Positions 202 to 60,183 of a stretch of DNA of 64,000 nucleotides are shown here, in pieces. Below the pieces are notes generated by a model. It ran no database searches. It was not told the DNA's origin and saw only the letters and a program-made list of their open reading frames with translations. Within the stretch, counting starts at the first letter, position 1. The number at the start of each line of letters is the position of its first letter. Both the position numbers and the translations under genes were made by a program. The DNA lies in NCBI GenBank assembly GCA_035528375.1, contig DATKYS010000118.1:7824-71823 (forward strand). The letters run 5' to 3'. This DNA is from a bacterium (lineage in GTDB: Bacteria; RBG-13-66-14).

Positions 202-221
202 TCGAAGCCTTTTAAAGAGGG

Positions 222-1046: not shown

Positions 1047-1047
1047 C

Positions 1048-2205: not shown

Positions 2206-2223
2206 AAACCCGAGAGGTGCGCG

Positions 2224-3846: not shown

Positions 3847-3862
3847 CCATCAGCCTCTTTGA

Positions 3863-3897
3863 GCCGGAAGCCGGGAGACCGCTTTCGGCCGTTTTTT
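3863..3897 (+). terminator. intra-operon intrinsic terminator/attenuator hairpin (GCCGGAAGC...GCUUUCGGC stem incl. one G-U) followed by TTTTTT
   Basis: 9-bp stem with 9-nt loop then T6 run, located between the aminotransferase stop and the flippase start. Confidence 0.5.
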
Positions 3898-3931
3898 CCC
3901 CCAGGGACCCGTATTCCGGGGAACCCTACGA

Positions 3932-9944: not shown

Positions 9945-9994
9945 AAGCTTGGCGTGAGCATCCTTCGATTCTTCACGTCATCGGACCCTGGTAT

Positions 9995-11056: not shown

Positions 11057-11058
11057 AA

Positions 11059-12120: not shown

Positions 12121-12431
12121 GCCTTTACGAGTGGGCGCTTCTGGTCGGAGGGGTGGTGCTTCTATCCCTGGCGAATTACCGCTTTTACTTCGGTGGCCGG
12201 CGTTTTAGTTACGTGCTATTCGTTCTGGCCTCGGCGTTCTTCGTCGGCAGCTTCCTCCTGGCCGGGCTGGTGCGGGAGGATTACAACGCCGCGCTGACGC
12301 TGATGCTCATCTACCTCGCGGTCTACGTCGTCGAGCGGGTCGGCTTTATCCTGCTCACGGGCTTTCTGCGCAAGCGCGCCGCGAAGGGTCACGAGGACGA
12401 GGGGGACCAGACCGGCCAGAGCGGCGATTAA
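12117..12431 (+). CDS. small hydrophobic membrane protein (3 predicted TM helices), hypothetical
   Basis: GTG start overlaps the GT4 stop (GTGA coupling). High GC3 codon usage. It overlaps the convergent gene 12216..13010 by 216 nt, so one of the two may be misassigned. Confidence 0.35.
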   Translation: MSLYEWALLVGGVVLLSLANYRFYFGGRRFSYVLFVLASAFFVGSFLLAGLVREDYNAALTLMLIYLAVYVVERVGFILLTGFLRKRAAKGHEDEGDQTGQSGD

Positions 12432-13010
12432 CCAGGGTCCGGTCGAAGACAGCCCCTCCACGGACACACCGCAATCGAAGGTGTTAAACAGGGCGGTGAA
12501 GAGCACCGCGGCCGGCCAGAAGCTCCCCGCCGCCCAGGTCAGCATCCCCGCCAGACCGGCCGACACGACGCCGCGGGTCGTGGGCACGACGGCGAGCACC
12601 GCCAGCGCCCCCCAGATGATTCTCCCCATGAAACCGCCCGAGTCGAGAAAAACGGGCAGAAAGCGGTAGGCGAAATAGGCCACTCCCGCCGCGGCCACCG
12701 CATTGGAGACCCAGACCCAGACATCCGCCCAGCCTGCGGGAGCTTTCAGCTCGGGGAAGAGGAAGAACACCGCGACGGCGACCGCGCCCGCGACGAGAAG
12801 CTGCCGGTAGAGGCTCGCCCCCGATTCGGCGGGAATCCGATTGAGTCTGATCCAGACCAGGGGCGCGACGATGCCGACCGCGACGAAGGCGATCAGCCGG
12901 TAAAAAAGCTCGTAGGCCACGTTGGCTCCGCCCAGCCAGTGGGTCGCGGCCAGGAGAACGTAGGCGGTCACCAGGCCCAGGGCGTAAAAAAGACGTATCC
13001 TCGACGACAT
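12216..13010 (-). CDS. polytopic membrane protein, hypothetical
   Basis: 264-aa ORF, N-terminal 190 aa strongly hydrophobic with coding-like GC3. C-terminal charged tail overlaps + strand small ORF. Confidence 0.5.
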   Translation of the reverse strand: MSSRIRLFYALGLVTAYVLLAATHWLGGANVAYELFYRLIAFVAVGIVAPLVWIRLNRIPAESGASLYRQLLVAGAVAVAVFFLFPELKAPAGWADVWVWVSNAVAAAGVAYFAYRFLPVFLDSGGFMGRIIWGALAVLAVVPTTRGVVSAGLAGMLTWAAGSFWPAAVLFTALFNTFDCGVSVEGLSSTGPWLIAALAGLVPLVLVTLRGALAQKAREQDKADPLDDVDREVDEHQRQRGVVILPHQPGQEEAADEERRGQNE

Positions 13011-15363: not shown

Positions 15364-16229
15364 CTGAGCGCAACGGCGCGTCGCTCCGACGTCTCGACGA
15401 GATTTACCGGAGCTGCGCCCTCTGCCCCCGGGCATGCGGGGTGGACCGGACGGCGGGGGAGAGGGGGTCCTGCGGCGTGGGACCGGTGCCGCCGGTCACC
15501 TCCGCCGGTCCCCACTTCGGAGAGGAGCCGGAGCTGGTCGGGGGCGGCGGTTCGGGGACCATCTTCTTCGGCGGCTGCAACCTCCACTGCCTCTTCTGCC
15601 AGAACGCCGACATCAGCCAGCGCGCGGTGGGGAGACCCGCGGGGCCCGAGGAACTGGCCCGATTGATGCTCACCCTGGAGGGGATGGACTGCCAGAACGT
15701 GAACCTGGTGACGCCGACCCACCTCGCCCCCCCGCTGGCCCGGGCGGTGAGCCTCGCCCGGGGGATGGGCCTGCGGGTGCCGCTGGTCTGGAACTGCGGG
15801 GGGTACGAGAGTCGGGAGGTCATCGCCCTGCTGGACGGTTTGGTTGAGATTTACATGCCCGACTTCAAGTACGGCCCCGACGCTCCCGCCGGGGAGCTCT
15901 CGGGGGCGCCGGACTACTTCGAGAAATGCTCCGAGGTTCTTTGCGAGATGCAGCGCCAGGTGGGGGTCCTGGAGACCGACGACCGCGGCGTAGCCCGGAA
16001 GGGGCTTTTAATCCGCCACCTGGTCCTCCCGGGCGGACTGGCCGACTCCCGGGGCGTCCTGCGGTTCATCGCCGAACTATCCACCGAAAGCTACGTCAAC
16101 GTCATGGACCAGTACCGCCCCTGCCACCGGGTGGGTGAGTACGGGGGCCTGAACCGGCGGCCGACCGCCGGCGAGGTGGAGGATGTCCGGGGGTACGCGC
16201 GGGGGCTGGGTCTTCACCGCGGATTTTGA
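15360..16229 (+). CDS. radical SAM protein, PflX/AmrS-like (pyruvate formate-lyase activating enzyme-like family)
   Basis: N-terminal CALCPRACGVDRTAGERGSCG motif plus canonical CxxxCxxC radical SAM cluster (GCNLHCLFCQNADIS). 289 aa, no SPASM extension. Confidence 0.7.
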   Translation: MTERNGASLRRLDEIYRSCALCPRACGVDRTAGERGSCGVGPVPPVTSAGPHFGEEPELVGGGGSGTIFFGGCNLHCLFCQNADISQRAVGRPAGPEELARLMLTLEGMDCQNVNLVTPTHLAPPLARAVSLARGMGLRVPLVWNCGGYESREVIALLDGLVEIYMPDFKYGPDAPAGELSGAPDYFEKCSEVLCEMQRQVGVLETDDRGVARKGLLIRHLVLPGGLADSRGVLRFIAELSTESYVNVMDQYRPCHRVGEYGGLNRRPTAGEVEDVRGYARGLGLHRGF

Positions 16230-19089: not shown

Positions 19090-19117
19090 AGCTTTGTCAC
19101 CCACGAGGAGGCAAATT

Positions 19118-19495
19118 GTGGAAATCACCGAGGTGAGGGTCAGCCTGCGCGATGAGGAAAAGCTAAAGGCTTACGCCTCCATCGTATTCGACAACTGTTT
19201 CATCGTCAAAGACCTGCGCGTCATTGACGGCAACGACCGTCTCTGGGTGGCCATGCCGAACAAGAAGCGCCGCGATGGTACGCGTCGCGACGTCTGCCAC
19301 CCCCTGAACGCCGAGACGCGGTCCAAGATCGAGGAAGCGGTTTTGGCGAAGTACGATGAGCTCATGCGGGAGGGCCTCTACGACAGTTCCCCCGAAGCCG
19401 GAGGAACCGAGGTCCCCTCCGAGGTCCCCTCCGAGGTCCCCTCCGAGGACCCCTCCGAGGACCCCCCCGAGGAGTTCGAAGAAGGCGAAGCATAG
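19118..19495 (+). CDS. spoVG: septation protein SpoVG with C-terminal acidic tandem-repeat tail
   Basis: VEITEVRVSLRDEEKLKAYASIVFDNCFIVKDLRVIDGNDRLWVAMP matches the SpoVG family. GTG start chosen. Tail (EVPS)x3-EDPS-EDPP encoded by a 12-bp tandem repeat. Confidence 0.8.
   Translation: MEITEVRVSLRDEEKLKAYASIVFDNCFIVKDLRVIDGNDRLWVAMPNKKRRDGTRRDVCHPLNAETRSKIEEAVLAKYDELMREGLYDSSPEAGGTEVPSEVPSEVPSEDPSEDPPEEFEEGEA
19407..19466 (+). repeat. in-frame 12-bp tandem repeat GAGGTCCCCTCC x3 plus two diverged copies inside spoVG 3' end
   Basis: Direct reading of sequence: gaggtcccctcc gaggtcccctcc gaggtcccctcc gaggacccctcc gaggaccccccc. Confidence 0.85.
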
Positions 19496-19596: not shown

Positions 19597-19670
19597 TGGG
19601 GCGTCGACAAGCGGTAAGTCAACGGCCTTTGGAGCCGTCATCGTAGGTTCGAATCCTACCGCCCCAGCCA
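19597..19670 (+). tRNA. tRNA-Gln (anticodon TTG)
   Basis: Cloverleaf by hand: acceptor UGGGGCG/CGCCCCA (U1-A72 as in bacterial tRNA-Gln), anticodon stem ACGGC/GCCGU with loop CUUUGGA (anticodon UUG), T-arm GUAGG-UUCGAAU-CCUAC, discriminator G, encoded CCA. Confidence 0.85.
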
Positions 19671-29359: not shown

Positions 29360-31882
29360 ATGAAGAAGCTGATGTTGGTCCTCATCCTCCTGACGCTGCC
29401 CCTGGCTGCGCTGGCCGAGTCCTGGACCGTCATGGTATGGCTCAACAACCAGAACAACCTGAAAACCTACGGCTGGGACGACGTCAACGAGATGGAGGAC
29501 TGCAACTACAGCGCCTACCCCGACGGGGTGGACGTTATCGTGATGGTTGGATGGGACCCCGACAACCAAACCAAGCTTTTCCACATAGAAACCGACCCCG
29601 GCGGCTACGCCTCGGGCGGCTACGGGGACATCGTCTCCACTGAGATCACCGGCCACGGCATCTGGACCGGCAACGTGGCCAACATGGACGATCCCCAAAT
29701 CTTCGAGAACTTCATCCAGTGGGTCACCGACAACTACCCCGCCGACAACTACCTCCTCGACGCCTGGGACCACGGCAGCGGCATCTTCCTGGAGGACGAG
29801 ACCAAGGACTGGATAGACCGCGGGATGTGCAGCAACCTGAAAATCTGGCAGATCGAGGAGGCCCTGGAGAACGTCGGCGAGTTCATAGACGTCATCGGCT
29901 TCGACGTCTGTCTGGGCGGGCAGATAGAGAACGGCTACCAGTATCTGGGCGACGTGGGCATCTGCATCTGCAGCGAGGACTCGGAACCCGGCGACGGGTG
30001 GGATTACCAGGCGTTCAACATTTTCGAGGAGGACTCGAGCGTCACCCCGGAGGAGATAGCCGCCCGCATCGTCAACGATTACCTGGACTTCTACGGTTCC
30101 GGCGTGACCCAGGCCGCCCAGAACGTGAAGAACTGGTCCACCGTCATGGAAGGCGATTGGGCGGACCTCTGCCAGTCGCTCTTCGACAACTGCTACACCT
30201 ACCAGGACCGGATAACCGTCGCCCGGAACTCCGCCGACTACTGGAACACGCCCGACGACCGCGACCTGTACCAGTTCGTGGAAGCCCTGGCGGGAGACGG
30301 TTCCCTGCCCGGCGATCTGCACACCAAGGCCGCGCAGGTCGTCGCCGACCTCGAGGACTACGTTCTCGCCGGCGGGATGCACAACCCCATTGACTCCGGC
30401 GACGGGATGGCCGTCTACTTCCCCGCGAACGGATCGGACCACCCGAACTGGGCCACCTACACCACCCTCATCAACTTCTCCGACACGCTGTGGGACGAAT
30501 TTTTGGAAATGTACGCCGATCCCTACCCCGTGCAGCCGGTTTCCATCGCCTTCGATTCCGTCGTCTACGACGATTCCGCAGGCGGCAACGGCGACGGAAA
30601 GCTCGACCCCGGCGAGGCGATTGAAGCGACCATAACCCTGCTCAACGACGGCACGGACACCGCGACGAGCGTCGCCGCCACCCTCATCATTGATGACGCC
30701 TACTTCACCGTCACGGATGCGTCCGGCGACTTCGGCCCCATCCCCCCCGGTGGAACCGCCTCCGACACGTTCAGGTTCAGCATCGGCAGCTTCTGCCCCG
30801 ACCACTACTACACCTACGCCGACCTGGCCATCACCGCCGACGGCGGCTACGCCACCGAGGCCACCTTCGGCATCGTCGTCGGGGTGGGCTTCGAGGACGA
30901 CGTGGAGTCGGGCGAGGACTTCTGGACCCACGGCGGCACCGGCGACCAGTGGCACGTCTCCACCGAGGACGCGCACTCCCCCACCCACTCCTGGAAGTGC
31001 GGAGACACCGGCTCCGGCGGCTACGGCAACGGCCAGAATTCCTGGATCAAGACCTGCCCCATCTTCGTGGACGCGGACCACGACGAGCTGAGCTTCTGGA
31101 CCAGATACGACATGGAATCGGGCTACGACTTCGTCTACCTCGACGTTTCGGTGGACGGGGGTGCCTGGGTCCAGAAGGACGTCTTCAGCGGGACGAACCT
31201 GGAATGGACCAGGAAGAGTTACGATTTCTCCCCCTACACGGACGATATCGTCGAGGTGCGGTTCCGCTTCTCCTCCGACGGCGGTCTTACCTTAGAGGGC
31301 TTCTACTTTGACGACGTCTGTGTGGAAGAGCAGACCTCGGACATCGGCTCCGTGGCCTTCTCCGGCGAGGCCGTGGACGAGGGGATCCTGCTCGCCTGGA
31401 GACCGGACAACCCGGCGGAAATCACGGGGGTGAACGTACTCCGCGAGGAAAAGGATGGCTACGTCCGGCTGAACGAAACTCCCCTGACCGGCGGACGCTA
31501 CCTGGACCTCGATGTCTCACCCGGTTCGAGCTACCGCTACGAGCTGGAGGCGCTGGGCGCCGACGGCTCCAGGAACTTGTACGGCCCCATCGAGGTGGCC
31601 GGTTCGGGCGCCGGGGCGCGGGTCACGAGACTGGAGCCGTGCTACCCCTGCCCGGCCGTAACCTTCACCACGGTTCCCTTCACCCTGGCCACCGACGGGT
31701 CCGTCCGGATAGACGTGTACGACCTGGCCGGCCGCCTGGTACAGACCGTCGCCCGCGGTGAATTCGCGGCGGGTCGCCACGAGGTCTCCTGGGGGACCGA
31801 CGGCGTCGCCAACGGCGTTTACCTGATCCGCCTGGCGGGCGGAGGGACGACGGCGACGCAGCGGGTAGTCGTCTCCCGGTAA
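29360..31882 (+). CDS. secreted clostripain-like (peptidase C11 family) cysteine protease with T9SS/FlgD-Ig-like C-terminal sorting domain
   Basis: Signal peptide. His/Cys dyad context LLDAWDHGSG and IGFDVCLGG typical of C11. C-terminal ~80 aa (VRIDVYDLAGRLVQTV...NGVYLIRLAGGGTTATQRVVV) matches the T9SS-type CTD and is shared with the 38913 gene. Confidence 0.6.
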   Translation: MKKLMLVLILLTLPLAALAESWTVMVWLNNQNNLKTYGWDDVNEMEDCNYSAYPDGVDVIVMVGWDPDNQTKLFHIETDPGGYASGGYGDIVSTEITGHGIWTGNVANMDDPQIFENFIQWVTDNYPADNYLLDAWDHGSGIFLEDETKDWIDRGMCSNLKIWQIEEALENVGEFIDVIGFDVCLGGQIENGYQYLGDVGICICSEDSEPGDGWDYQAFNIFEEDSSVTPEEIAARIVNDYLDFYGSGVTQAAQNVKNWSTVMEGDWADLCQSLFDNCYTYQDRITVARNSADYWNTPDDRDLYQFVEALAGDGSLPGDLHTKAAQVVADLEDYVLAGGMHNPIDSGDGMAVYFPANGSDHPNWATYTTLINFSDTLWDEFLEMYADPYPVQPVSIAFDSVVYDDSAGGNGDGKLDPGEAIEATITLLNDGTDTATSVAATLIIDDAYFTVTDASGDFGPIPPGGTASDTFRFSIGSFCPDHYYTYADLAITADGGYATEATFGIVVGVGFEDDVESGEDFWTHGGTGDQWHVSTEDAHSPTHSWKCGDTGSGGYGNGQNSWIKTCPIFVDADHDELSFWTRYDMESGYDFVYLDVSVDGGAWVQKDVFSGTNLEWTRKSYDFSPYTDDIVEVRFRFSSDGGLTLEGFYFDDVCVEEQTSDIGSVAFSGEAVDEGILLAWRPDNPAEITGVNVLREEKDGYVRLNETPLTGGRYLDLDVSPGSSYRYELEALGADGSRNLYGPIEVAGSGAGARVTRLEPCYPCPAVTFTTVPFTLATDGSVRIDVYDLAGRLVQTVARGEFAAGRHEVSWGTDGVANGVYLIRLAGGGTTATQRVVVSR

Positions 31883-38912: not shown

Positions 38913-40808
38913 ATGAGAAGCGCGATTGCGATGCTTTTGATCATCACCGCCGCGGCCCTGGCCATCACCGAGGCCCCGCTCTTTTTCTCCGAGATGCAGA
39001 GAGCCGACGCGGACAGGCCCCGGGTCGGCCCCGCGCCGCCCGGAACCGCCGAGTACAACATTGGAGACCACCTCCAGCTCTGGAAGTGGAACCTTTCCGG
39101 CTACCCGACTCAGGACCTCGTGGACTGCACCATCCGCGGAAAAAGAGACCACGGCTACGTCGTCGTGGACGACACGGTCTGGGGAAGTCAGGTGAACCAG
39201 ACCGACGTCAACCAGATTCTCGAGGCCTGGGAGAACTCCTCGGACGGCCCCCGCCCCGGCGACGGCATCTACGAGATAAACACCACGACCTTCGGGCCGT
39301 GCCCCGACGAGATTGACGGGGACCCGCGCGTGTTCCCTTTCTACTACGACCTGGACATCTCCGCCGACGGCTTCTGGATGTTCTACGACGAGTACCCCGA
39401 CGGCGAGTACGAATGGCACTCCAACGAGCGGGAAATCGTCTACCTGAACAGCTCGGACAACGACCCCGGCGGGGACTACATGATAGCCGTCGCCGCCCAC
39501 GAGTGCCAGCACATGCTCCACTGGTACCAGGACTCCGACGAGCTCGCCTGGGTGGACGAGGGCTGCGCCGAGCTGGCCATGTTCCTCTACGGGCATCCCG
39601 ACTCCATCAGCGGCTTCAACGGCAACTCGGACAACGACCTGACGGCCTGGAACGGCGCCTGGGCTGACTACATCAAGACCTACCTCTGGACGCTCTACCT
39701 CTACGAGCACTACGGCGAGGGCTCCGCCGACCCGGTGGACCTCGTATGGGAGCTGGTCCACGAGCAGGCGAACTCCATCACCGGGGTGAACAACGCCCTG
39801 GACACCGTGGACGCCGGGACCACCTTCGAGGATATCCTGCCCGACTGGGTCGCCGCGAACTTCCTCGACCTGGCGGACTCCGACCTCTTCGATGGCCGGT
39901 ACAGCTATTTCGGCGAAGACTTGCCGCTCTTCACCCCCGCCTCGATCCACAACAACTACCCCGCCTCGGGCTCCAACAGCCTCTCCCGCTACGCCGGGGA
40001 GTACGTGCTCTTCGTGGAGCCCGGACGCGGGCCTGAAATCACCGAATGGCTCTACGGAACCTTCGACGGCCACGACGCCTCCGACTTCACCGTGGACGTC
40101 CTGCGCATAGACTCGGGCGACGAGTCGGCCACCGAGGTCGCGCGCCTCGACCTGGACTCGGAGAACTGGTCCACCTTCGACGCGCCGGAATTCCCGTACA
40201 CCCACGACCGGGTGGTGCTCGTGACGACGAGGCCGACCGCGGCGGGGCCCGGAACCTACGACTACCACGCTGACGTGAGCGAAACCGGCGTCGGGGACGC
40301 GGAATTCAGCGCCGCGCGCACCGGGGACGGCGTCCTGACCCGGTGGAGCTCGCCAGAGGCGCGGACGGTCGTCCTTCTGCGCGAGGACGGGGCGGAGGAG
40401 ACAACGGTAGTCCGGCTGGATTCCACCGAGGGTCGCTATCTCGACCGGGAGGCCCCGGATGCCGGCTGTTACTACGTTCTCGAAGTGACGGACCTCTCCG
40501 GGCGGCGGACGCGCCTCGGACCGGTGGAGGTGGGTCCCGCCGAGAGCGACCGCGCCGGTCTCACTCTCAGCGCGCCTTACCCCTCGCCCTCCTCCGACCG
40601 GGTGACCTTCGAATTCACCGTCCCCGGCGATGGAGCGGCCCGATTCGTCATTTACGACCTCGCCGGTCGCGAGCTGTTCTCGACGGCGGTGACGCCGGCG
40701 GAGGGACGCGTGGTGTGGGATTCCTCGGCCGCGGCTCCGGGGGTGTACCTGGCACGGCTCGCCGGTGACGGGTGGACGGTCGGCCGCCGGCTGGTCATCG
40801 TCCGCTGA
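38913..40808 (+). CDS. secreted HExxH zinc metalloprotease (M6/InhA-like) with T9SS/FlgD-Ig-like C-terminal sorting domain
   Basis: Signal peptide. Zinc site AAHECQHMLHW plus downstream DEGCAE. The C-terminal FVIYDLAGRELFST...PGVYLARLAGDGWTVGRRLVIVR domain is homologous to the C-terminus of the 29360 gene. Confidence 0.6.
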   Translation: MRSAIAMLLIITAAALAITEAPLFFSEMQRADADRPRVGPAPPGTAEYNIGDHLQLWKWNLSGYPTQDLVDCTIRGKRDHGYVVVDDTVWGSQVNQTDVNQILEAWENSSDGPRPGDGIYEINTTTFGPCPDEIDGDPRVFPFYYDLDISADGFWMFYDEYPDGEYEWHSNEREIVYLNSSDNDPGGDYMIAVAAHECQHMLHWYQDSDELAWVDEGCAELAMFLYGHPDSISGFNGNSDNDLTAWNGAWADYIKTYLWTLYLYEHYGEGSADPVDLVWELVHEQANSITGVNNALDTVDAGTTFEDILPDWVAANFLDLADSDLFDGRYSYFGEDLPLFTPASIHNNYPASGSNSLSRYAGEYVLFVEPGRGPEITEWLYGTFDGHDASDFTVDVLRIDSGDESATEVARLDLDSENWSTFDAPEFPYTHDRVVLVTTRPTAAGPGTYDYHADVSETGVGDAEFSAARTGDGVLTRWSSPEARTVVLLREDGAEETTVVRLDSTEGRYLDREAPDAGCYYVLEVTDLSGRRTRLGPVEVGPAESDRAGLTLSAPYPSPSSDRVTFEFTVPGDGAARFVIYDLAGRELFSTAVTPAEGRVVWDSSAAAPGVYLARLAGDGWTVGRRLVIVR

Positions 40809-46098: not shown

Positions 46099-46548
46099 TC
46101 AGTGCTTGATGTCCAGCATCTCGACGACGGCATCGGCCCGCTTCACCAGTTCCACCGGCGCCCTGCGGCCGGTGAGGACCAGCTCCAAGGGGAATCCCAC
46201 ACGGAACACCGTCTCGACGTCCGCGAGGGGGATAAAACCGGCCTCCACCGCGTCCAGGAGCCCGTCCAGCACCAGCAGGTCATGGCCCCGGGCCTCGATT
46301 AGGTCGAGAGCCGTCCGCCAGCCCTTTTCCGCCGAGCTCCGCCCGCCCTCGCCGAGGTCGCAGGGAAAAACCTCGATTCCCAGCTTGACCGCCGACTCGG
46401 CCTCCCCGGACGTTTCCGGCCTCAGAAACCGCACCACCGCCACCCGTCCACCATTACCGCGCCGGCCCATCGCCAGGCCGAAAGCGGCGGCGCTGCCGGT
46501 CTCGACCTCGCCGGAATAGATCCTGACCCTGCGATCCGTATCAGCCAC
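46099..46548 (-). CDS. CobA/CobO/BtuR-family (cob(I)alamin adenosyltransferase-like) protein with degenerate P-loop
   Basis: Aligns to CobA along its length (VVRFLRP, LLVLDGLLDAVEAGFIPLADV, LVLTGRRAPVELVKRADAVVEMLDIKH). The GNGKGKTT P-loop is replaced by GEVETGSA. Confidence 0.6.
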   Translation of the reverse strand: MADTDRRVRIYSGEVETGSAAAFGLAMGRRGNGGRVAVVRFLRPETSGEAESAVKLGIEVFPCDLGEGGRSSAEKGWRTALDLIEARGHDLLVLDGLLDAVEAGFIPLADVETVFRVGFPLELVLTGRRAPVELVKRADAVVEMLDIKH

Positions 46549-46578
46549 TCCATGCTCCTTGAAGCGGGATAAATCCGG

Positions 46579-48624
46579 TCAGACCTCGTCGCCGTGCTTG
46601 GCGGTGATCAGCCGGACGAAGAGGGACACCACCTTCGGGTCGTAGCGCGAGCCGGCCTCGGCCTCGAGCTCGGCCAGGGCCGACCGGGCGGTTTTGGGCT
46701 GCTGGTACCGTCGTCCCGAGATCATCGCGTCGTAGGAGTCCGCGACCGCCACCAGGCGTGCGCCGACGTAAACCTCCTCGCCCGCGAGCCCCAGGGTGTA
46801 ACCCTTCCCGTCCCAGCGCTCGTGATGCTGGCGGACGGTCTTGATGCACTCCTCGTCGAAACCGAGGAGCTTGAGGATGTCCGCGCCGACCTCGGGGTGC
46901 GCCTCCACCTGTCTCTGCTCCTCCTCGGAGAGCTGCACCGTGTCCTGGATGGTGGCGTCGGCCAGGGTGGCTATCATGCCGACGTCGTGCAGAATGGCGC
47001 CGTAGACGATCTGGTGGATCTCCTGCCGGGGAAGGTCCATCATCTGCGCGAGCTTGGCCACGTAACGGCTGACGCGCTCGGAGTGACCGCGGGTGTAGGG
47101 ATCGCGGGAGTCTATGGCGGCGATGAGACGGCCGACGGTGTCGCGGTCGTGCTTGTGCAGGCGCTGGAACAGGCGGGCGTTCTCCAGGTGGACGGACACC
47201 TGCTTGGAGAGGCTCCAGATGAGGTGCAGATCCTCGGCGTCGTAATCCAGTTGCCCGACCTTGGGCCCCAGGGCCAGGATGCCGAGGAACTCGCGCGTAG
47301 AGACGAGCCCGCAGACCATCGTAAAACCCAGCTCGGTCAGCTTCTGCTTCAGGCTGCCCGAGCCGTCCTCGGTCAGGGCGTCCAGCGGCAACGGCTTCTT
47401 CGTCGTCAAGAGCTCACGGCGGACGTCCTCGGAGAGAACCTGGGAGTAGGTCAGGTCGAGCTCGTCGGTGATGCCCTTGGCGAGCTTGAGGTTCAGGTGG
47501 TCGCCCTCCATCAGGAAGACCGCCGTGCGGCTGACGCCGAGCTGGCCGATGACGATGACCAGGAAGGTGTTCAACAGCTCGTGAACGGCGAATTGGCCGC
47601 TGAAATCACGGGCGGCCTGGAACATGGTCTTGAGCTCGAGGGTCTTGCGGGTGAGCTTTTTACCGGCAAGGGTCAGCTCCTCGTCCGCCTGCGTCAGCCG
47701 CTCCGAAGCAGCCGCCAGTTCACCGACTAAAGGCTCGACCGAGAGGTGGTAGAGGATGAACCAGTTGAGCTGGCGGCCCAGGAGGGCGAGGGCTTCGACC
47801 TCACCCTCGATGATGGGGCTGGGACCGAAACAGATGAACGCGTGGAGACCCTCGCCCGAGCGGATGCGGAGAATGCCCTGCGTGCCCGCCATCTGTAGCG
47901 TCTCAAGCTCCTCCGACGAGGGGAACGTACGGCGCCAGCGCGGGAAGAGGAGGAAGTCGCTCTTCGCGCCGCGCAGACGGTCCACGAAATCCCCGTCCAC
48001 GGGCAGGCGAAAGCCCGGGCCGATGCCGATCCCCTGGCCCGCGACGACCAGGGGCGCGAAAAATCCGTCGCCCGTCTGGTTGAAGAGCGCCATCCACGGG
48101 ATGCCGAAGACGTCAACGGCGGCGCTGAGGGCCAGCGCGATGGGCTGATCAGAGCTCCTGAGACGGACCAGGATGTCTGAAAACTCGAGCACGTCCTTGG
48201 GGGTGGCCAGGGAGCGAAGGGGGACCTCGATGGGGGACTCGGGCACCAGGACTTCGGACGTCGTGGGGGTCAGGTGGGAAAAATGGTCCAGGGCCTCGTC
48301 AACCGAGTCGTAAATTTTAAAGTAATCCAGAAGGTCCAGGGATTCCAGCACGCGACGGATGCGGGGGGGGATGAGCGCGAAAACGATGTCGCCGTCCGAG
48401 GCCCGGACCTCCTTGGCCACGGAGATAAAGGCGCCCACGCCCGCGCTGGAGATGAACTCGAGCTTATCGAGGATGAAGACGGTGTTGTACACACCCTCGC
48501 CCAGGCAGACCTCGAAGAGTTTCTGGATGTCCGTCGAGCCCTCGATGCCGAGCATGCCGGAAATTTCGTAGACGCGGACGCCGTCCGGGGTGGTGCGGTT
48601 GAGGGTTATGGAGAGCTCGTGCAT
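46579..48624 (-). CDS. STAS (anti-sigma-factor antagonist) - GAF - HD-GYP-type phosphodiesterase multidomain protein
   Basis: N-terminal STAS with phosphorylatable-serine context LEFISSAGVGAFI. Central GAF-like region. C-terminal HD domain (HSERVSRY, ILHDVGM, HPEVGAD) with HHERWDGKGYTLGL (GYP motif present as GYT). Confidence 0.7.
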   Translation of the reverse strand: MHELSITLNRTTPDGVRVYEISGMLGIEGSTDIQKLFEVCLGEGVYNTVFILDKLEFISSAGVGAFISVAKEVRASDGDIVFALIPPRIRRVLESLDLLDYFKIYDSVDEALDHFSHLTPTTSEVLVPESPIEVPLRSLATPKDVLEFSDILVRLRSSDQPIALALSAAVDVFGIPWMALFNQTGDGFFAPLVVAGQGIGIGPGFRLPVDGDFVDRLRGAKSDFLLFPRWRRTFPSSEELETLQMAGTQGILRIRSGEGLHAFICFGPSPIIEGEVEALALLGRQLNWFILYHLSVEPLVGELAAASERLTQADEELTLAGKKLTRKTLELKTMFQAARDFSGQFAVHELLNTFLVIVIGQLGVSRTAVFLMEGDHLNLKLAKGITDELDLTYSQVLSEDVRRELLTTKKPLPLDALTEDGSGSLKQKLTELGFTMVCGLVSTREFLGILALGPKVGQLDYDAEDLHLIWSLSKQVSVHLENARLFQRLHKHDRDTVGRLIAAIDSRDPYTRGHSERVSRYVAKLAQMMDLPRQEIHQIVYGAILHDVGMIATLADATIQDTVQLSEEEQRQVEAHPEVGADILKLLGFDEECIKTVRQHHERWDGKGYTLGLAGEEVYVGARLVAVADSYDAMISGRRYQQPKTARSALAELEAEAGSRYDPKVVSLFVRLITAKHGDEV

Positions 48625-48809
48625 GGCCGTGGGTGCCCCGGTTAATAGGAAACGAAATTACGTCCCCGGTAAAACGGACGTGGAGGGGTGGTTATCTTCT
48701 TTAATAGCCAATCACAAACCGTGCCAGCTCCGTAGAGGCGTGCCGAGGTGGTGAATCCACGAGCCGCCATCCGGATCGAAACCGCAAAACTACTGCGGGT
48801 CGGGGCTTT

Positions 48810-49292
48810 TCAAGGCGTAGGTCGCACCTTGAACCCCTTCTTCATCTCCAGAACGTTCAGGCCGTCCCGGTTGTAGAAGTTGACCTCGTCCATCAGGTTG
48901 TGGATCATCCAGAGGCCCAGCCCTCCGTCGGCCCCCCTGTCAATGAGCTCCCACACGTCGGGCGAGGTGCGACCTCCGGTGCGACCTCCGGTGCGACCCA
49001 CGTCGTCGGGAGGCCGGAAGGGGGGTCCCGAATCGTAGATGAAGATGATTGCCGCGGATTCCTGTATCTCCAGCTCCACCTTGATGTCGAGCTTCGGGGA
49101 GTCTTTGTAGGCGTGCTCGATGACGTTGGCGCAGCCCTCGTAAACCGCCAGGGTTATGTCGTCGCGCACGGTTCCCGGTACGCCGTGCAGGGAAGCCACC
49201 CGGTTGACGAACCGCTTGATACCCGCCAGGGCCTCGAGGTCGGATTTCAACCGGATGCTGTACTTGTTGTGCTTCATCCTCGCCGGGTTCAC
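48810..49292 (-). CDS. anti-sigma regulatory factor-type serine protein kinase (RsbW/SpoIIAB-like GHKL ATPase) with in-frame GRTGGRTGGRT repeat insert
   Basis: N-box EGCANVIEHAY, G-boxes DSGPPF and GGLGLWMI. 160 aa. Confidence 0.7.
   Translation of the reverse strand: MNPARMKHNKYSIRLKSDLEALAGIKRFVNRVASLHGVPGTVRDDITLAVYEGCANVIEHAYKDSPKLDIKVELEIQESAAIIFIYDSGPPFRPPDDVGRTGGRTGGRTSPDVWELIDRGADGGLGLWMIHNLMDEVNFYNRDGLNVLEMKKGFKVRPTP
48962..48997. repeat. 12-bp tandem repeat GGTGCGACCTCC x3 within the kinase gene
   Basis: ggtgcgacctccggtgcgacctccggtgcgaccc read directly. Encodes GRTGGRTGGRT on the minus strand. Confidence 0.85.
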
Positions 49293-49504
49293 GGGACCCC
49301 CGAAACCCGCGTTCGGAGGGTAATTACGGCCCTATCAGCAAGCAATGATAGGGCTTGGCGTAAAAAAAGTCAACGCAGCCGATTTTAAAGCTCACGCTCG
49401 ATAACTATTTGATATACAACGAATTAGGCTCTATGAACCCCGGGGCGGGTGGGGCTTTATCCCTCTAAAAGGGCTGATGGAGCGGTTTTTTCGTAAATTT
49501 TTTC

Positions 49505-49681: not shown

Positions 49682-49954
49682 ATGACCAAGCAAGACCTCA
49701 TCGATCGCATCGCCAGCCAGACCGGACTCACCAAGCGCCAGGCTGGCCAGGCCCTCAATGCCGTTGTTGACGGCATCAAGGGCGCCATGAAGAAGGGCGA
49801 GCGCGTGACCCTCGTCGGCTTCGGCACCTTCTTCGTCGCCCAGCGGAAGTCCCGCACCGGCCGCAACCCGCGGACACAGCAGAAAATCAACATCCCGGCC
49901 CGCAAGGTTCCGAACTTCCGTGCCGGCAAAGAGCTCAAGCACCTGGTTCGGTAA
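49682..49954 (+). CDS. hup: DNA-binding protein HU
   Basis: MTKQDLIDRIASQTGLTKRQAGQALNAVVDGIKGAMKKGERVTLVGFGTF..R.GRNPRT 90-aa canonical HU. Confidence 0.9.
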   Translation: MTKQDLIDRIASQTGLTKRQAGQALNAVVDGIKGAMKKGERVTLVGFGTFFVAQRKSRTGRNPRTQQKINIPARKVPNFRAGKELKHLVR

Positions 49955-56656: not shown

Positions 56657-57429
56657 AGTCCCCGGCGCTGGCGGAGCGCCTCGAAGGCGGCCACCCCGAA
56701 GGCCACGCTGGCGTTGAGCGACTCCACCTCGCCGAAGAGCGGGATGCAGACGAGGAAATCGCAGGCCAGCTCCACGGCGTGCCCGACCCCCCGGCTCTCG
56801 GCGCCCACGACGAGCGCCAGCGGACCCGTCAGGTCGGTGGAGTAGATGGTCTCACCGGCGTCCCCGGAAAGCCCCACGCACCAGACGCCCAGTTCTTTCA
56901 AACGCCGGAGCGCCTGGGCGACGTTCGAGACAACGGCCAGCGGCAGGTGGGCCGTCGCCCCGGCCGAGGCCCGCACCACGGTCCCGGTGACCGGCGAGGC
57001 GCGGCGGACGGGTATGACCGCGCCGTGGCACCCGGCGCACTCGGCGGTCCGCAGCACCGCGCCCAGGTTGTGCGGGTCCTCCAGGTGGTCGGTCACCGCG
57101 AGGAAGGGCTTCTCACCGCGCTCTTCGGCAATCCAGACCAGGTCCTCCACCGTGAACGCCCGCCGGTCAACCTCGGCCGCCACGCCCTGGTGCCTCTGCG
57201 AGCGGCAGATCTGAACCAGTTCCCTCTCCGGGATGACCGAAACCGTGATGCCGCACTTCCGGGCGCCGTCGGCCAGGACGGAGACCTTCCGACCGCACTC
57301 GCGCGCTACGTACAGCCGCTTCACGCCGACGCCGGCGCGCAGCGCCTCCTGGACGGGCCTGTAACCGTAGATAAGCTCCAAAGTGGATAGCTCAACGCCA
57401 GCAGGCGTAGGTGATTTCGGCGTCCTCAC
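56653..57429 (-). CDS. rlmB: SpoU/TrmH-family RNA 2'-O-methyltransferase (23S rRNA Gm2251 methyltransferase RlmB-like)
   Basis: LVLEDPHNLGAVLRTAECAG, VRASAGA, SPOUT knot motifs. Start may be the internal GTG at 57396 to avoid a 38-nt overlap with the upstream gene. Confidence 0.75.
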   Translation of the reverse strand: MRTPKSPTPAGVELSTLELIYGYRPVQEALRAGVGVKRLYVARECGRKVSVLADGARKCGITVSVIPERELVQICRSQRHQGVAAEVDRRAFTVEDLVWIAEERGEKPFLAVTDHLEDPHNLGAVLRTAECAGCHGAVIPVRRASPVTGTVVRASAGATAHLPLAVVSNVAQALRRLKELGVWCVGLSGDAGETIYSTDLTGPLALVVGAESRGVGHAVELACDFLVCIPLFGEVESLNASVAFGVAAFEALRQRRGL

Positions 57430-58354
57430 CGGCCAGGGGCCGGCTCTCCAGGGTTTCCAGATTAACGATGCGGCTCATCCAGCGTGGATCGTCGTAAACC
57501 GTGATGAGAAGCCATTCCCCGTCGGGACTGGGCCGGGGGAAGAGGACCAGGCCCTCGATGCCGGCCACGCGCTCCGCGGTCGGCGAACCCTTGGATTCCG
57601 CCGGGTCGTCGAGGCGCCGGATGGAGCCGACGGGCACCTCCCCGACATACTCGAAGCTGTCGAAGTAGAGCGCGCCGTCGGGTGCGAACCAGGGCGAGCC
57701 CTCGTCGGACGGAGTGTCGTAAACCGCGAACAGCGACTCGGTGGCTATCTCGCAGCCCCAGAGGCCCCAGTCCATTTTGGCGCCGCCGGCGCCGTCCCGG
57801 TTGCTGGAAAAAACGACCACCGACCCGTCCGGCGAGAGTGTCGGGGATTGGTAGTCGGCCTCCCCCGGGGTCAGTTGCCGGAGACCTCCGTCGTCGAGAA
57901 TGAAAATCTGCCAGCGTCCGGTTACCGGCTCCAGGGCGTCGAAGACGACCCCATCGGCCCGGGGGGCCGCCGCCGAGGACAGTCCGGCGGGATAGGACGC
58001 CAGGTCGAACCGCCGCTCCGGCTCGCCGAAACGGTCCCCCGAGAAGGCGAGGGACCAGAGGGCGGGCTCACCAACGTCGGCCCCGGCCCAGGCCCAGAGC
58101 TCCCGGCCGTCCGGGGTGAAGACCAGCTGGTCCACCGGCCCGGTGAAGGGCAGCTCCACCGGATCGCCGAACCGGAGCCCCGTAGGTTGCACCTCGTCGC
58201 CCAGAACCGGCATGTAGAAGGCCCGGCTCGTATCGGCCTTCGGCGAGCCGTCCCGGAGGACGAAAGCCACGCCCATCGGCCGCCGCCCGATTTTGCAGGA
58301 CGCGACCATCAACAAACCGAGAATCAACAATATACGCAGAGCGGTTTTCACCAA
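57392..58354 (-). CDS. TolB-like beta-propeller lipoprotein (PD40 repeats)
   Basis: Lipobox LLMVASC. PD40-like repeats (YQSPTLSPDGSVVVFSSNRDG, SPWFAPDGALYF, RPSPDGEWLLI). Confidence 0.6.
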   Translation of the reverse strand: MVKTALRILLILGLLMVASCKIGRRPMGVAFVLRDGSPKADTSRAFYMPVLGDEVQPTGLRFGDPVELPFTGPVDQLVFTPDGRELWAWAGADVGEPALWSLAFSGDRFGEPERRFDLASYPAGLSSAAAPRADGVVFDALEPVTGRWQIFILDDGGLRQLTPGEADYQSPTLSPDGSVVVFSSNRDGAGGAKMDWGLWGCEIATESLFAVYDTPSDEGSPWFAPDGALYFDSFEYVGEVPVGSIRRLDDPAESKGSPTAERVAGIEGLVLFPRPSPDGEWLLITVYDDPRWMSRIVNLETLESRPLAGEDAEITYACWR

Positions 58355-58428: not shown

Positions 58429-58896
58429 TCATTCGACCAGCGCAACCGCCCAAGCCGCGATGCCCTCGCCCCGACCGGTGCAGCCGAGCCCCTCGGTGGT
58501 GGTGGCCTTGATGGAGACCCCGGCCGCGTGAGGCCCGAGAATCCGCCCCAGCCTCTCGCGCATCGCCGGGACGTGGGGCGCCAGCTTCGGCCGCTCGCAG
58601 GCGACGACCGCGTCCACGTTGATTACCCGCAATCCCGACCCGGCGAGCATCCCCGCCACCTCGGCCAGAAGGGCGCAGGAATCGGCCCCGGCGTAGCGGG
58701 GATCGTCGTCGGGAAACTGTTGGCCGATGTCGGGCAGCCCCGCCGCCCCCAACAGGGCGTCCATCACCGCGTGGACCAGCACGTCGGCGTCGGAGTGCCC
58801 GGCGAGCCCCAGCTCGAAGGGAATCTCGATCCCGCCCAGGACCAGCCGCCGGTCGGGCGTCAGCCGGTGCACGTCGAACCCGATTCCGACCCTCAT
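58429..58896 (-). CDS. ispF: 2-C-methyl-D-erythritol 2,4-cyclodiphosphate synthase
   Basis: MRVGIGFDVHRL...GHSDADVLVHAVMDALLGAAGLPDIGQQFP canonical IspF. The upstream part of the ORF-track entry (58897..59967) is antisense to the deacetylase gene and not coding. Confidence 0.85.
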   Translation of the reverse strand: MRVGIGFDVHRLTPDRRLVLGGIEIPFELGLAGHSDADVLVHAVMDALLGAAGLPDIGQQFPDDDPRYAGADSCALLAEVAGMLAGSGLRVINVDAVVACERPKLAPHVPAMRERLGRILGPHAAGVSIKATTTEGLGCTGRGEGIAAWAVALVE

Positions 58897-59052
58897 GGGA
58901 GAAAACCGCCTAAGCCGTTGCACGGTGTGGATTTTAGGTTTATCCCGCCGGGGTGTCAACACGGTCGGCTCAAGAGGTCTCATCCGCGGCGGACCGGGAT
59001 TCACCGGACGGAACCGCCGGCGTGTGCTATACTTGCGGCGACGCACCGCGAT

Positions 59053-60183
59053 ATGCCAAGATACATCCTCATCGTTCTGACGGTTATCTCCTCGCTCGCC
59101 GCGGCCGGCGACCTCCGCCCGGACCTCTCGAGCCTGGACGACTACACCCGCCGGGTGGAGTTCGACCCGCTCGAGTCCGTGGCGCTCAAGCCCGACCTCA
59201 CCAGCCTCACCGATTACCGCGCCCCGGAGACATTCCGCATCGAGGCGAAGCTGCGCGGCGAGCCCTCGCCGGGTGAATCCGCCGCGGTGTGGGAGGAGAT
59301 AAGCCACGCCCAGGCGACCGGTGAATCTCTCCTGCGGCGCGAGCCCGTCGTCTGGGAAACCCTCGCCGACTACCACCCCTACGAGAAGGTGGGGCAGTGG
59401 CGTCTTCTGTACGACGTGGCCCGGGCGGACGAGTGGGCCGACCCTCGGCGCGAGCGCGGCGAGAGGCCTAAGGTCTCCATTTTGATGTACCACGACCTCC
59501 GCGACGTCTCCCGGTACTCCACCGTCATCACCCCCTGGCAGTTCGAGGAGGAGGTCCGCTGGCTGACGGAGTCGGGATACGAGTTCATCACCATCGGTCA
59601 GTTGCTGGACGCCGTCTATTCCGGAGGCGGAGACCTGCCGCCCCGCTGCGTGGCGCTGACCTTCGACGACGGCTGGAGCGGCGTTTACCGTTACGCCTAC
59701 CCGATTCTGAAGCGGTACGGCGCCACGGCCACCCTCTACCTCTACACCAACTACATCGGCGTCGGCGGCCGGTCCAACACCTGGGACCAGTACCGGGAGA
59801 TGCTGGCCAACGGCTTCGAGATCGGCAGCCACACGGTTTCCCACTGCGACCTGACCAACCGGGGCGCGTGGCGCGGCCGGGGCTCCAAGCCCCCGTCGGG
59901 ACATGGAACCTACACCCAACGGCTGATGCACGAGCTGGTGGACTCGAGGATGATCCTCGAGGAGCACCTGGGAGTGCCCGTCCGGAGCCTGGCCCTGCCC
60001 TATGGCGCCTACGACGACTACGTGCTCAAGAGCGCGCTCCTGGCCGGCTACGAGGGCATCCTTACCATCAAGGCCGGCAACACCTACGTGGACGCAGACA
60101 CGAACGAGATAGAGCTCCGGCGCTGGAACGTCGTTCCGTCCATGGGTCTGGCGACCTTCATCGAACGCCTGGACAGGGAATGA
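59053..60183 (+). CDS. secreted polysaccharide deacetylase (NodB homology domain, CE4)
   Basis: Signal peptide MPRYILIVLTVISSLAAAG. NodB motifs LTFDDGW, HTVSH, LPYGAYD. Confidence 0.75.
   Translation: MPRYILIVLTVISSLAAAGDLRPDLSSLDDYTRRVEFDPLESVALKPDLTSLTDYRAPETFRIEAKLRGEPSPGESAAVWEEISHAQATGESLLRREPVVWETLADYHPYEKVGQWRLLYDVARADEWADPRRERGERPKVSILMYHDLRDVSRYSTVITPWQFEEEVRWLTESGYEFITIGQLLDAVYSGGGDLPPRCVALTFDDGWSGVYRYAYPILKRYGATATLYLYTNYIGVGGRSNTWDQYREMLANGFEIGSHTVSHCDLTNRGAWRGRGSKPPSGHGTYTQRLMHELVDSRMILEEHLGVPVRSLALPYGAYDDYVLKSALLAGYEGILTIKAGNTYVDADTNEIELRRWNVVPSMGLATFIERLDRE

Follow-up and report, generated by a model that had tools for sequence, protein, structure and literature searches.

The stretch of DNA considered here, hereafter the window, comprises 64,000 nt of contig DATKYS010000118.1 (assembly GCA_035528375.1, positions 7,824-71,823 of the forward strand) from the lineage Candidatus Coatesbacteria, and it carries on its minus strand a gene for an RsbW-like serine kinase followed by a gene for a fusion protein that joins an N-terminal STAS domain to GAF domains and a C-terminal HD-GYP-type phosphodiesterase domain. 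An earlier note on this DNA had proposed that phosphorylation of the fused STAS domain by the kinase is a switch for second-messenger turnover, and our analysis favors a switch of this kind. The three open reading frames (ORFs) on which the proposal was built, namely these two and a CobA-like gene downstream of them, are all present at the positions listed in Table 1, as are the motifs FISSAGVG and HHERWDGKGYT that had been read in the fusion protein. The nearest species-representative genome is RBG_13_66_14, with a fusion protein that is 92% identical.

The assignment of the smaller protein to the RsbW/SpoIIAB type of kinase was borne out at several levels. Pfam HATPase_c_2 matches across its whole length (E = 4.6e-25), its top PDB match is RsbW of Bacillus subtilis (6M36), and the N, G1 and G2 boxes of a GHKL-type serine kinase are intact. 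RsbW is also its top NCBIfam match, at 63.5 bits against an equivalog cut-off of 145, and because this score is far under the cut-off the protein is described here as RsbW-like rather than as an RsbW orthologue. Public gene calls start the kinase at the ATG at 49277, which is likely the true start and gives a protein of 155 aa. The ratio of non-synonymous to synonymous substitution rates (dN/dS) lies at 0.17-0.25 among close relatives, indicating purifying selection. An in-frame tandem repeat in the ATP-lid loop varies in copy number among these relatives (three copies in the window, two in locus L010, none in L011 and L012) and is apparently a recent, tolerated expansion.

The 681-residue ORF of the fusion protein reads, from its N-terminus, as STAS, linker, GAF domain 1, long helix, GAF domain 2 and HD-GYP. 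The earlier description as STAS-GAF-HD-GYP was right about both ends, which were recovered in Pfam and PDB comparisons, but the middle of the protein holds two GAF domains instead of one. Profile searches for STAS, GAF, HD and HATPase_c placed STAS at the N-terminus and HD_5 at the C-terminus, with GAF_3 just under its cut-off in the second GAF region, and the same region of homologues scores above the Pfam cut-off. The position of GAF domain 1, too divergent for Pfam in the window protein, gives GAF or GAF_2 matches in the homologues P0087, P0088 and P0090. The full-length AlphaFold2 (AF2) model has a mean predicted local distance difference test score (pLDDT) of 63 and, being only moderately confident, was used for domain topology and not for interdomain contacts; its first fold match is PmGH (GAF-HD-GYP), followed by HD-GYP domains and then by tandem-GAF proteins (phytochromes, PDE6). 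The variable, low-confidence linker between STAS and GAF domain 1 fits a STAS domain that acts as a tethered docking domain. Overall, the fusion gene is under strong constraint, with a dN/dS of 0.15-0.20 that indicates purifying selection.

The STAS domain falls far short of the NCBIfam equivalog cut-offs, and S60 is its predicted phospho-acceptor. In an alignment that also included TM1081, this residue stands opposite the phosphoserine S58 of SpoIIAA from B. subtilis and Geobacillus stearothermophilus (1AUZ/1TH8) and opposite the serine of the DS pair in TM1442 of Thermotoga maritima, with S59 in place of the usual aspartate before the acceptor. In the AF2 model S59 and S60 lie where strand 3 passes into helix 2, which is also the arrangement of SpoIIAA; alignment, model and conservation agree in placing a phosphorylatable serine where helix 2 begins. 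S60 does not vary in alignments A1 and A2 or in another 36 members of the family, and the motif F[IV]SSAG[MV]G holds without exception over the whole range from 100% to 25% identity.

Gene linkage within and beyond Coatesbacteria

Matches to the fusion protein were found in six Coatesbacteria species genomes, one of them (L015) ending at residue 301 at the end of its contig. The order of a divergent gene for an HU-family protein, the kinase gene and the fusion gene is the same in all Coatesbacteria loci (48-100% identity), whether they come from public assemblies, from species genomes or from one of nine metagenome contigs. The kinase gene lies directly upstream of the fusion gene in every Coatesbacteria locus with upstream sequence (L001-L015 and 9/9 metagenome loci), at gaps of -4 to +250 bp. 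The HU gene keeps its position in every Coatesbacteria locus with a flank that long and was not found in distant family loci; its retention reflects lineage synteny.

The pairing is not unique to the window but defines a small family across several uncultured lineages. An exhaustive HMMER search with residues 1-300 gave six further clusters at 50% identity (P0085-P0090), all of STAS-GAF-GAF-HD-GYP architecture, with lengths of 661-682 aa and 25-29% overall identity to the window protein. Word-indexed protein searches returned less: with STAS alone there was one match from 10 candidates, and with the broad-family alignment only the first candidate pool was covered and P0085-P0090 were missed. 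In five of the six clusters the fusion gene is preceded by genes for a SpoIIE-type phosphatase and a HATPase_c_2 kinase (Table 1), and on direct reading the SpoIIE proteins carry the GGDYFD, DVSGKG, TDG and DD motifs. A metagenome scan with the pattern F[IV]SSAG[MV]G[AVT][FL] returned 36 loci. Nine of these were of the Coatesbacteria type, where a kinase lies upstream in 9/9 and SpoIIE in 0/9; among the loci of other lineages with upstream sequence, 17 of 18 have both SpoIIE and the kinase upstream, the exception being of the P0085 type. With the five cluster representatives, SpoIIE and the kinase lie upstream in 22 of the 23 assessable loci outside Coatesbacteria.

Altogether, the kinase gene adjoins the fusion gene in all assessable loci but two of the P0085 type, among more than 40 related loci, an arrangement that is more than chance. 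This survey of genomic context, which the earlier note had put forward as a check, shows the pairing recurring from 100% to 25% identity, with a PP2C phosphatase added in 22 of the 23 assessable loci outside Coatesbacteria. The linkage of a complete trio to the fusion, with no adjacent sigma factor, matches what the earlier hypothesis predicted and is hard to explain otherwise. If the adjacency were incidental, the kinase would serve a STAS/sigma pair encoded elsewhere and the fused STAS would be a non-phosphorylated dimerization or ligand-binding domain, much as the STAS domains of SLC26/SulP transporters are not phosphorylated (STAS review), and the 185-bp spacer between the two genes in the window clade may hold a promoter of its own. 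Such an account is highly improbable given a linkage kept across that whole range of identity and across GC contents of 33-64%, with genes that often overlap or nearly abut, an invariant SpoIIAA-type acceptor-serine context and a sister arrangement in which the same STAS subfamily is fused to the kinase itself.

In that sister arrangement (L072-L077) the STAS domain follows the C-terminus of the kinase (X-HATPase_c_2-STAS), HAMP-SpoIIE precedes in L072, L076 and L077, where the upstream sequence is long enough to tell, and a HisKA/HATPase_c histidine kinase follows in the loci where the downstream gene was scanned (L072 and L074); the fusion of kinase and STAS indicates that the parts of the module are highly modular. 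In four sequenced loci of the distant clusters the trio sits in a seven-gene cluster that appears undescribed, consisting of a small ORF, a TPR protein (~560 aa), HAMP-SpoIIE, the kinase, the STAS fusion, a second TPR protein (~190 aa) and a polysaccharide deacetylase, with gaps of -14 to 85 bp in genomes of 33-64% GC. The window also encodes a polysaccharide deacetylase, 35% identical (E = 1e-40) to that of a distant seven-gene cluster, which adjoins a PD40-repeat gene about 10 kb from the kinase/STAS pair (58528-60183, plus strand, and 57392-58354, minus strand). L038 likewise has a PD40 gene near its cluster, and the deacetylase/PD40 neighborhood of the window may be a remnant of the ancestral arrangement.

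The statement of the earlier note that no sigma factor lies nearby also stood. Pfam searches with all coding-like ORFs of the window turned up neither a sigma factor nor SpoIIE/PP2C nor a second STAS domain, tblastn with SpoIIE queries against the window gave no match, and no sigma factor is adjacent in the related loci; the combination of a sigma factor and a separate single-domain antagonist, which would have made the fusion incidental, was thus not found in the window in either part. These results bear on a reading in which information flows in the opposite direction, with the fusion protein as a large anti-anti-sigma factor in which a GAF ligand or a dinucleotide at the HD-GYP domain controls the capture of the kinase by STAS and so releases a sigma factor or another target. 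The kinase has its closest families in RsbW and SpoIIAB, which are anti-sigma factors; there are multidomain STAS proteins, RsbR among them, that function upstream of kinases; and a sigma factor could be encoded outside the window. Moreover, orthologous genes for extracytoplasmic function (ECF) sigma factors, 46% identical, lie 7 kb upstream of the cluster in L039 (116-1581, plus strand) and 4 kb downstream in L042 (10234-11903, minus strand). However, these two differ in position and orientation, each has its own co-transcribed downstream anti-sigma factor, and none was found within 8 kb of the cluster in L038 or L043. The operon partners of the trio are TPR and polysaccharide-deacetylase genes, not transcription factors, and the strict conservation of the HD-GYP metal ligands argues that catalysis is what selection maintains, which together with the lack of an adjacent sigma factor in more than 40 loci makes this reversed flow unlikely.

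Catalytic and nucleotide-binding motifs of the HD-GYP domain

The top PDB matches of the HD-GYP region are PmGH (4MCW), V-cGAP3 (5Z7C) and PA4781 (4R8Z), and in residue-by-residue alignments H514, H546/D547, H576, H600/H601 and D629 fall on the metal ligands of PmGH, all seven being invariant. The position of the third-metal glutamate is occupied by tyrosine (DPYT), as in V-cGAP3, which places the site in the binuclear subgroup, and the domain is probably an active binuclear phosphodiesterase judging from these residues. The signature reads GYT rather than GYP, as the earlier note had pointed out, but this is a private substitution: GYT was seen only in the window genome, one relative has GYS and all others have GYP. 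It therefore says little, and the other motif changes are more telling. Tyr609 is kept, and it is the tyrosine of GYP that hydrogen-bonds the phosphate (Galperin and Chou, 2021).

Among the more telling changes, the lysine of HDxGK is replaced by methionine throughout Coatesbacteria (K, R or Y elsewhere in the family), and this HDVGM motif, the replacement of KPG and a change from IPD to LAD are all invariant in the clade. The KPG motif, which contacts the base via main-chain atoms (Galperin and Chou, 2021), is non-canonical across the whole family, usually xPxG and DTV in the window. In the window clade and the 57%-identity clade, the Rxx(K/R) motif, which reads one guanine (Galperin and Chou, 2021), takes the form RRYQ; it is RRYR in deeper Coatesbacteria branches, RRYL in L008 and RxxR (RRYR, RRHR or RHYR) in all other lineages. 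The window protein thus lacks both the KPG and the Rxx(K/R) motif for binding cyclic di-GMP (c-di-GMP), and its RRYQ conforms to the Rxx(Q/N) of the HD-GYP subgroup selective for cyclic GMP-AMP (cGAMP), known as GAP. It has been reported that RxxQ/N re-programmes HD-GYP proteins towards 3'3'-cGAMP, with only three of five active candidates selective for it (Wright et al., bioRxiv 600031), and the motif is for that reason suggestive only. The changes are compatible with either c-di-GMP or 3'3'-cGAMP as substrate, and sequence assigns neither; a shift to cGAMP in the window lineage is a reasonable hypothesis.

HD-GYP proteins with HDVGM also occur at loci L016-L036 of Gammaproteobacteria, Chloroflexota, Planctomycetota and Geobacter/Trichlorobacter, none of them with STAS or the kinase nearby. 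Most have a lysine at or near the KPG position (a full KPG in few), and most have Rxx(K/R) and GYP. HDVGM was accordingly rejected as a marker of a cGAMP-type subgroup. The occurrence of methionine in several unrelated lineages suggests that HD-GYP proteins can do without the lysine of HDxGK more readily than its conservation would imply.

The same motif changes could be taken to mean that the Coatesbacteria domain is catalytically crippled and serves as a dinucleotide receptor or interaction scaffold, in which case the module would no longer control hydrolysis. HDVGM, DTV and LAD are invariant in the clade, RxxQ is present in most members and GYT in the window, the linked phosphatase is missing, and inactive HD-GYP proteins that signal by protein-protein interaction are known (Galperin and Chou, 2021). 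Nonetheless, we consider this quite unlikely: the seven metal ligands and Tyr609 are retained, the HDxGK lysine is variable within the family and methionine stands there in otherwise canonical HD-GYP proteins of Geobacter and others, KPG makes its contacts via main-chain atoms, RxxQ enzymes are active on cGAMP (Wright et al., bioRxiv 600031), and the dN/dS of the fusion gene speaks for strong constraint.

Neighboring genes and other features of the window

The gap between the kinase and fusion genes is -4 to +20 bp in distant Coatesbacteria orthologues and about 185-250 bp in the sub-clade of the window. Inside this spacer, the block CTGGCACGGTTTGTG is kept in 5/5 close relatives while the rest has diverged, and it resembles a sigma-54 -24/-12 element with two mismatches to TGGCAC-N5-TTGCW. 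The reading of this block as a sigma-54 promoter was set aside, such matches being as frequent in the window as in shuffled sequences (15 against 15.4), so that it rests only on the cross-species conservation; no gene for a sigma-54 activator was seen in the window. No consensus intrinsic terminator was found between the kinase and STAS genes, and Rfam searches of the kinase, STAS and HU intergenic regions gave no riboswitch or other RNA family. The single Rfam match of the window is a tRNA gene (19597-19667, plus strand, 61.8 bits), the sole one present, just downstream of a SpoVG homologue (19094-19495).

The third gene of the set, 30 bp downstream of the fusion gene, had been described as CobA-like with a degenerate P-loop, and both its identity and the loss of the P-loop were confirmed, but it is not a component of the module. 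The P-loop position reads YSGEVETGSAAAFG (GEVETGSA) in the window and GDGKGKTT in relatives L006, L009 and L013, and it is degenerate in the window, L010 and L011. The sub-clade of the window has lost the Walker lysine, about nine internal residues and about 14 C-terminal residues; the Walker-A GxxGxGKT and the complete C-terminus expected of an ATP:cob(I)alamin adenosyltransferase (CobA/BtuR) are thus missing, and NCBIfam scores are far below the equivalog cut-offs. The gene follows the fusion only in orthologues of at least 57% identity. In the 57%-identity clade the gene is of full length and encodes an intact P-loop (L006 12211-12738; L009 2933-3442), and it is absent from the 48%-identity loci L004 and L008 and from all distant loci, which led us to reject it as part of the module. 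With a dN/dS of 0.27-0.44 it is under relaxed constraint, its ORF still open, and its product is a decaying or repurposed pseudo-enzyme, the gene probably being co-transcribed with the fusion.

Further from the pair, the first part of the window (1-16229) is a biosynthesis island of polysaccharide or O-antigen type with UDP-GlcNAc 2-epimerases, a DegT aminotransferase with a CBS domain, a flippase, a Wzy-like ligase and several GT4 glycosyltransferases. GC content falls to 58% at 8-10 kb and 16-18 kb of the window. Two large secreted proteins (29360-31882 and 38913-40808, both plus strand), one of them a clostripain-family C11 peptidase with a MAM-like domain, have weak matches to Por_Secre_tail, the C-terminal sorting domain of type IX secretion; one match scored 8.2e-06 at 26.5 bits, just below the cut-off, and the other is a precomputed match flagged as weak. 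These matches would fit an envelope of the Fibrobacteres-Chlorobi-Bacteroidetes (FCB) type in Coatesbacteria.

Table 1. Features of the kinase/STAS-fusion region, from the kinase side to the CobA-like gene, and loci of related gene arrangements. Positions without a locus number refer to the window.
Feature	Position	Strand	Basis or remark
HU-family DNA-binding protein	49682..49954	+	divergent from kinase gene
Sigma-70-like promoter match TTGACT-17-TATCAT	49345..49373	-	consensus match only; kinase/HU divergent intergenic region, upstream of kinase
RsbW/SpoIIAB-like serine protein kinase (HATPase_c_2)	48810..49292	-	Pfam, NCBIfam, PDB, catalytic-box alignment
Kinase N-box E52..N56..H60	49113-49139	-	alignment with SpoIIAB/RsbW and orthologues
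Kinase G1 box D87-S-G	49017-49034	-	same alignment
In-frame 12-bp tandem repeat GGTCGCACCGGA, ~2.75 copies	48966..48998	-	kinase ATP-lid loop; encodes GRTGGRTGGRT
Kinase G2 box GGLGL	48912-48926	-	same alignment
185-bp spacer, kinase gene to STAS-fusion gene	48625..48809	-	specific to sub-clade of window
Conserved block CTGGCACGGTTTGTG(A/T)	48711-48727	-	inside spacer, ~87 nt upstream of STAS-fusion start codon
STAS-fusion ORF, 681 aa	46579..48624	-	
STAS (anti-sigma-antagonist-type) domain, residues 1-115	48280..48624	-	Pfam STAS, residues 10-111, E 3.5e-14
FISSAGVG motif	48433-48456	-	S60 codon 48445-48447, predicted phospho-acceptor
Linker, residues 116-139	before GAF domain 1	-	variable length, low confidence in AF2 model
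GAF-like domain 1, residues ~140-297	47734..48207	-	AF2 pLDDT ~80-87, GAF-type α/β topology; no Pfam match
Helical or coiled-coil connector, residues 298-345	47590..47733	-	AF2 helix 273-343; heptad-like sequence by direct reading
GAF domain 2, residues 346-485	47170..47589	-	Pfam GAF_3, residues 349-482, 26.1 bits against cut-off of 27
HD-GYP-type phosphodiesterase domain, residues 486-681 and stop	46579..47169	-	Pfam HD_5, residues 501-665, E 4.2e-33
HDVGM in place of HDxGK	46975-46989	-	alignment
DTV in place of KPG	46936-46944	-	alignment
HHERWDGKGYT	46795-46827	-	HD-GYP signature
RRYQ in place of RxxK, residues 638-641	46702-46713	-	alignment
CobA/BtuR-like protein, 149 aa	46099..46548	-	Pfam CobA_CobO_BtuR, E 1.1e-23
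P0085	L041/L057		neither kinase nor phosphatase upstream
P0086	L042		upstream HAMP-SpoIIE, then HATPase_c_2 kinase
P0087	L038		upstream sCache-HAMP-SpoIIE, then HATPase_c_2 kinase
P0088	contig without DNA		upstream SpoIIE (156-aa call at contig end, no HAMP recorded), then HATPase_c_2 kinase
P0089	L043		upstream HAMP-SpoIIE, then HATPase_c_2 kinase
P0090	L039/L040		upstream HAMP-SpoIIE, then HATPase_c_2 kinase
Seven-gene cluster	L038 3759-11801; L039 3879-11905; L042 1339-9414; L043 3751-11797		also L054-L071
Sister arrangement	L072 310-4478; L074 125-2712; L076 5116-6303; L077 3250-4356		X-HATPase_c_2-STAS

A candidate phospho-switch and its known relatives

Taken together, these observations point to a sigma-independent phospho-switch of the partner-switching type, with the STAS domain built into the output enzyme, a reading to which we give a probability of about 0.6. 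It builds on the domain identities, the intact catalytic residues, the invariant acceptor serine, the purifying selection and the conserved gene linkage, which were established directly. The central claim of the earlier note, that the cognate STAS domain of the kinase is the one fused to HD-GYP, draws support from the conserved synteny, the linked PP2C in relatives, the invariance of S60 and the intact kinase boxes.

In the proposed switch, the RsbW-like kinase (155-160 aa) would bind the N-terminal STAS domain of the fusion and phosphorylate S60, and the phosphorylation state of STAS and/or its occupancy by the kinase would alter the activity of a dimeric GAF-GAF-HD-GYP cyclic-dinucleotide phosphodiesterase. 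The state of STAS would reach the HD-GYP domain either along the relay formed by the tandem GAF domains and the helix or through direct docking, STAS taking the role that REC has in REC-GAF/PAS-HD-GYP response regulators, and by analogy with All4160 and SiaC phosphorylation would be inactivating. In the ancestral module, which other uncultured lineages still have, dephosphorylation would fall to a PP2C encoded just upstream, a membrane protein of HAMP-SpoIIE or sCache-HAMP-SpoIIE type, so that second-messenger hydrolysis would be governed by a signal from the envelope or from outside the cell. The Coatesbacteria version would have kept the kinase and the fusion, with no linked phosphatase and with diverged nucleotide-binding motifs, and it may hydrolyze 3'3'-cGAMP, either instead of c-di-GMP or in addition to it. 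Resetting could depend on a phosphatase encoded elsewhere or on protein turnover, or else kinase binding or the ATP/ADP state could be the real input. The ATP/ADP state acts as an input for RsbW and SpoIIAB.

Several points weigh against this interpretation. It draws on homology and gene linkage, from which we infer both the phosphorylation and its catalytic effect. No PP2C/SpoIIE phosphatase was found in the window or in any of the Coatesbacteria flanks searched (262 kb), and in view of this the switch may not be classically reversible in Coatesbacteria, or the kinase may act mainly by binding. The window kinase bears the repeat insertion in its ATP lid, and the kinase of the 48%-identity orthologue L008 (7332-7745) has serine in place of the G1-box aspartate (ILSGGLAF, against ILDSGSAF in its sister L004) and may be a non-catalytic, binding-only protein. 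With KPG and the lysine of HDxGK gone, the phosphodiesterase could be less active. Besides, no kinase or phosphatase gene lies near that of P0085 (loci L041/L057), an ECF sigma factor with its own anti-sigma factor lies 4-7 kb from the cluster in two of the four sequenced distant loci, and RsbW-type proteins classically sequester a sigma factor too, one of which could be encoded elsewhere in the genome.

A bolder version of the proposal is that this is an undescribed module of uncultured FCB-type bacteria in which an envelope sensor phosphatase, through the serine phosphorylation of the STAS domain on the enzyme, toggles dinucleotide hydrolysis in conjunction with the TPR and deacetylase genes. 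Its Coatesbacteria branch would have become phosphatase-less, taken kinase occupancy or the ATP/ADP state as its input, and been re-specified from c-di-GMP to 3'3'-cGAMP through the change from RxxR to RxxQ and the loss of KPG. We regard this scenario, drawn from the same comparisons, as tentative and on the improbable side.

Partner switches have been known for sigma factors, for diguanylate cyclases acted on in trans and, since 2026, for one glycosyltransferase in cis, and a STAS-bearing phosphodiesterase, if true, would add the degradative side of cyclic-dinucleotide signaling. A system of two or three genes, with one serine, one kinase and one phosphatase, offers a handle on how the state of a STAS domain is transmitted to a catalytic domain, while the RxxQ sub-clade is a natural contrast for the re-specification from c-di-GMP to cGAMP inside one orthologous family. 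These are also among the first concrete signaling predictions for Candidatus Coatesbacteria, a phylum without cultured members.

Among the closest counterparts is the All4160/HenR/Alr3423 system of Anabaena PCC 7120, in which an N-terminal STAS domain lies in cis with an enzyme, the kinase is of RsbW type, no sigma factor is involved and the enzyme is the output. All4160 is phosphorylated by the RsbW-type kinase Alr3423 and the reaction is reversed by the SpoIIE-type PP2C HenR, the kinase gene of the paralogous pair all2284-all2285 adjoins the STAS-enzyme gene, and the authors regard the All4160 architecture as cyanobacteria-specific (Harada et al., 2026, PMC13555669). That system differs in having a sugar transferase as output, no tandem-GAF relay and a phosphatase with REC rather than HAMP/Cache input. 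The window has a STAS-enzyme fusion with an adjacent kinase, the PP2C being found only in relatives, and because the output domains differ (HD-GYP against glycosyltransferase) its protein is an analogue and not a homologous member of the All4160 type.

Control of c-di-GMP by a PP2C phosphatase, an RsbW-like kinase and a STAS or STAS-like protein, with no sigma factor, is likewise known from SiaABCD and HptB-HsbR-HsbA-HsbD of Pseudomonas aeruginosa and from BgrSTUWV-BgrR of Sinorhizobium meliloti, and partner-switch control of c-di-GMP synthesis has also been predicted from gene clusters in Campylobacterota. In SiaABCD, HsbA-HsbD and BgrV-BgrR, however, STAS is a separate polypeptide acting in trans and the target is a diguanylate cyclase, not a phosphodiesterase. 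The classical partner switches RsbU/V/W-SigB and SpoIIE/AA/AB-SigF share the kinase fold and boxes, the context of the STAS acceptor serine and, as far as the distant family members go, the PP2C partner; here, in contrast, no sigma factor was found, STAS is not a free single-domain protein, and scores are far below the equivalog cut-offs.

On the side of the enzyme, the GAF-HD-GYP part is similar in sequence and fold to PmGH (Bellini et al., 2014), and the REC-GAF/PAS-HD-GYP regulators such as RpfX/RpfY (Galperin and Chou, 2021) equally combine a phospho-acceptor, a GAF-type relay and a C-terminal HD-GYP domain. In the REC-HD-GYP families an aspartate of REC is phosphorylated by a histidine kinase, whereas the module described here has a STAS serine, a GHKL serine kinase and PP2C. 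PmxA, Bd2325 and the GAP candidate of Geobacter metallireducens (Gmet_3476 in Galperin and Chou, 2021) share the Rxx(Q/N) motif (Wright et al., bioRxiv 600031) but have another N-terminal architecture; in the family studied here, RxxQ is confined to Coatesbacteria sub-clades of an otherwise RRYR family and comes with the KPG and HDxGK changes.

The census of HD-GYP architectures lists REC, GAF, PAS, Cache and other inputs and never STAS (Galperin and Chou, 2021), the STAS review names only transporters and All4160 as multidomain STAS examples, and full-text literature searches for STAS-HD-GYP or STAS-GAF proteins, or for RsbW together with HD-GYP, returned nothing relevant. The earlier remark that the pairing is not a standard described module therefore stands as far as reports of STAS-HD-GYP proteins go, but the pairing recurs beyond the window and its principle has precedents. 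Overall, what is new here is the output domain and the wiring of a known kind of switch, and not a new principle.

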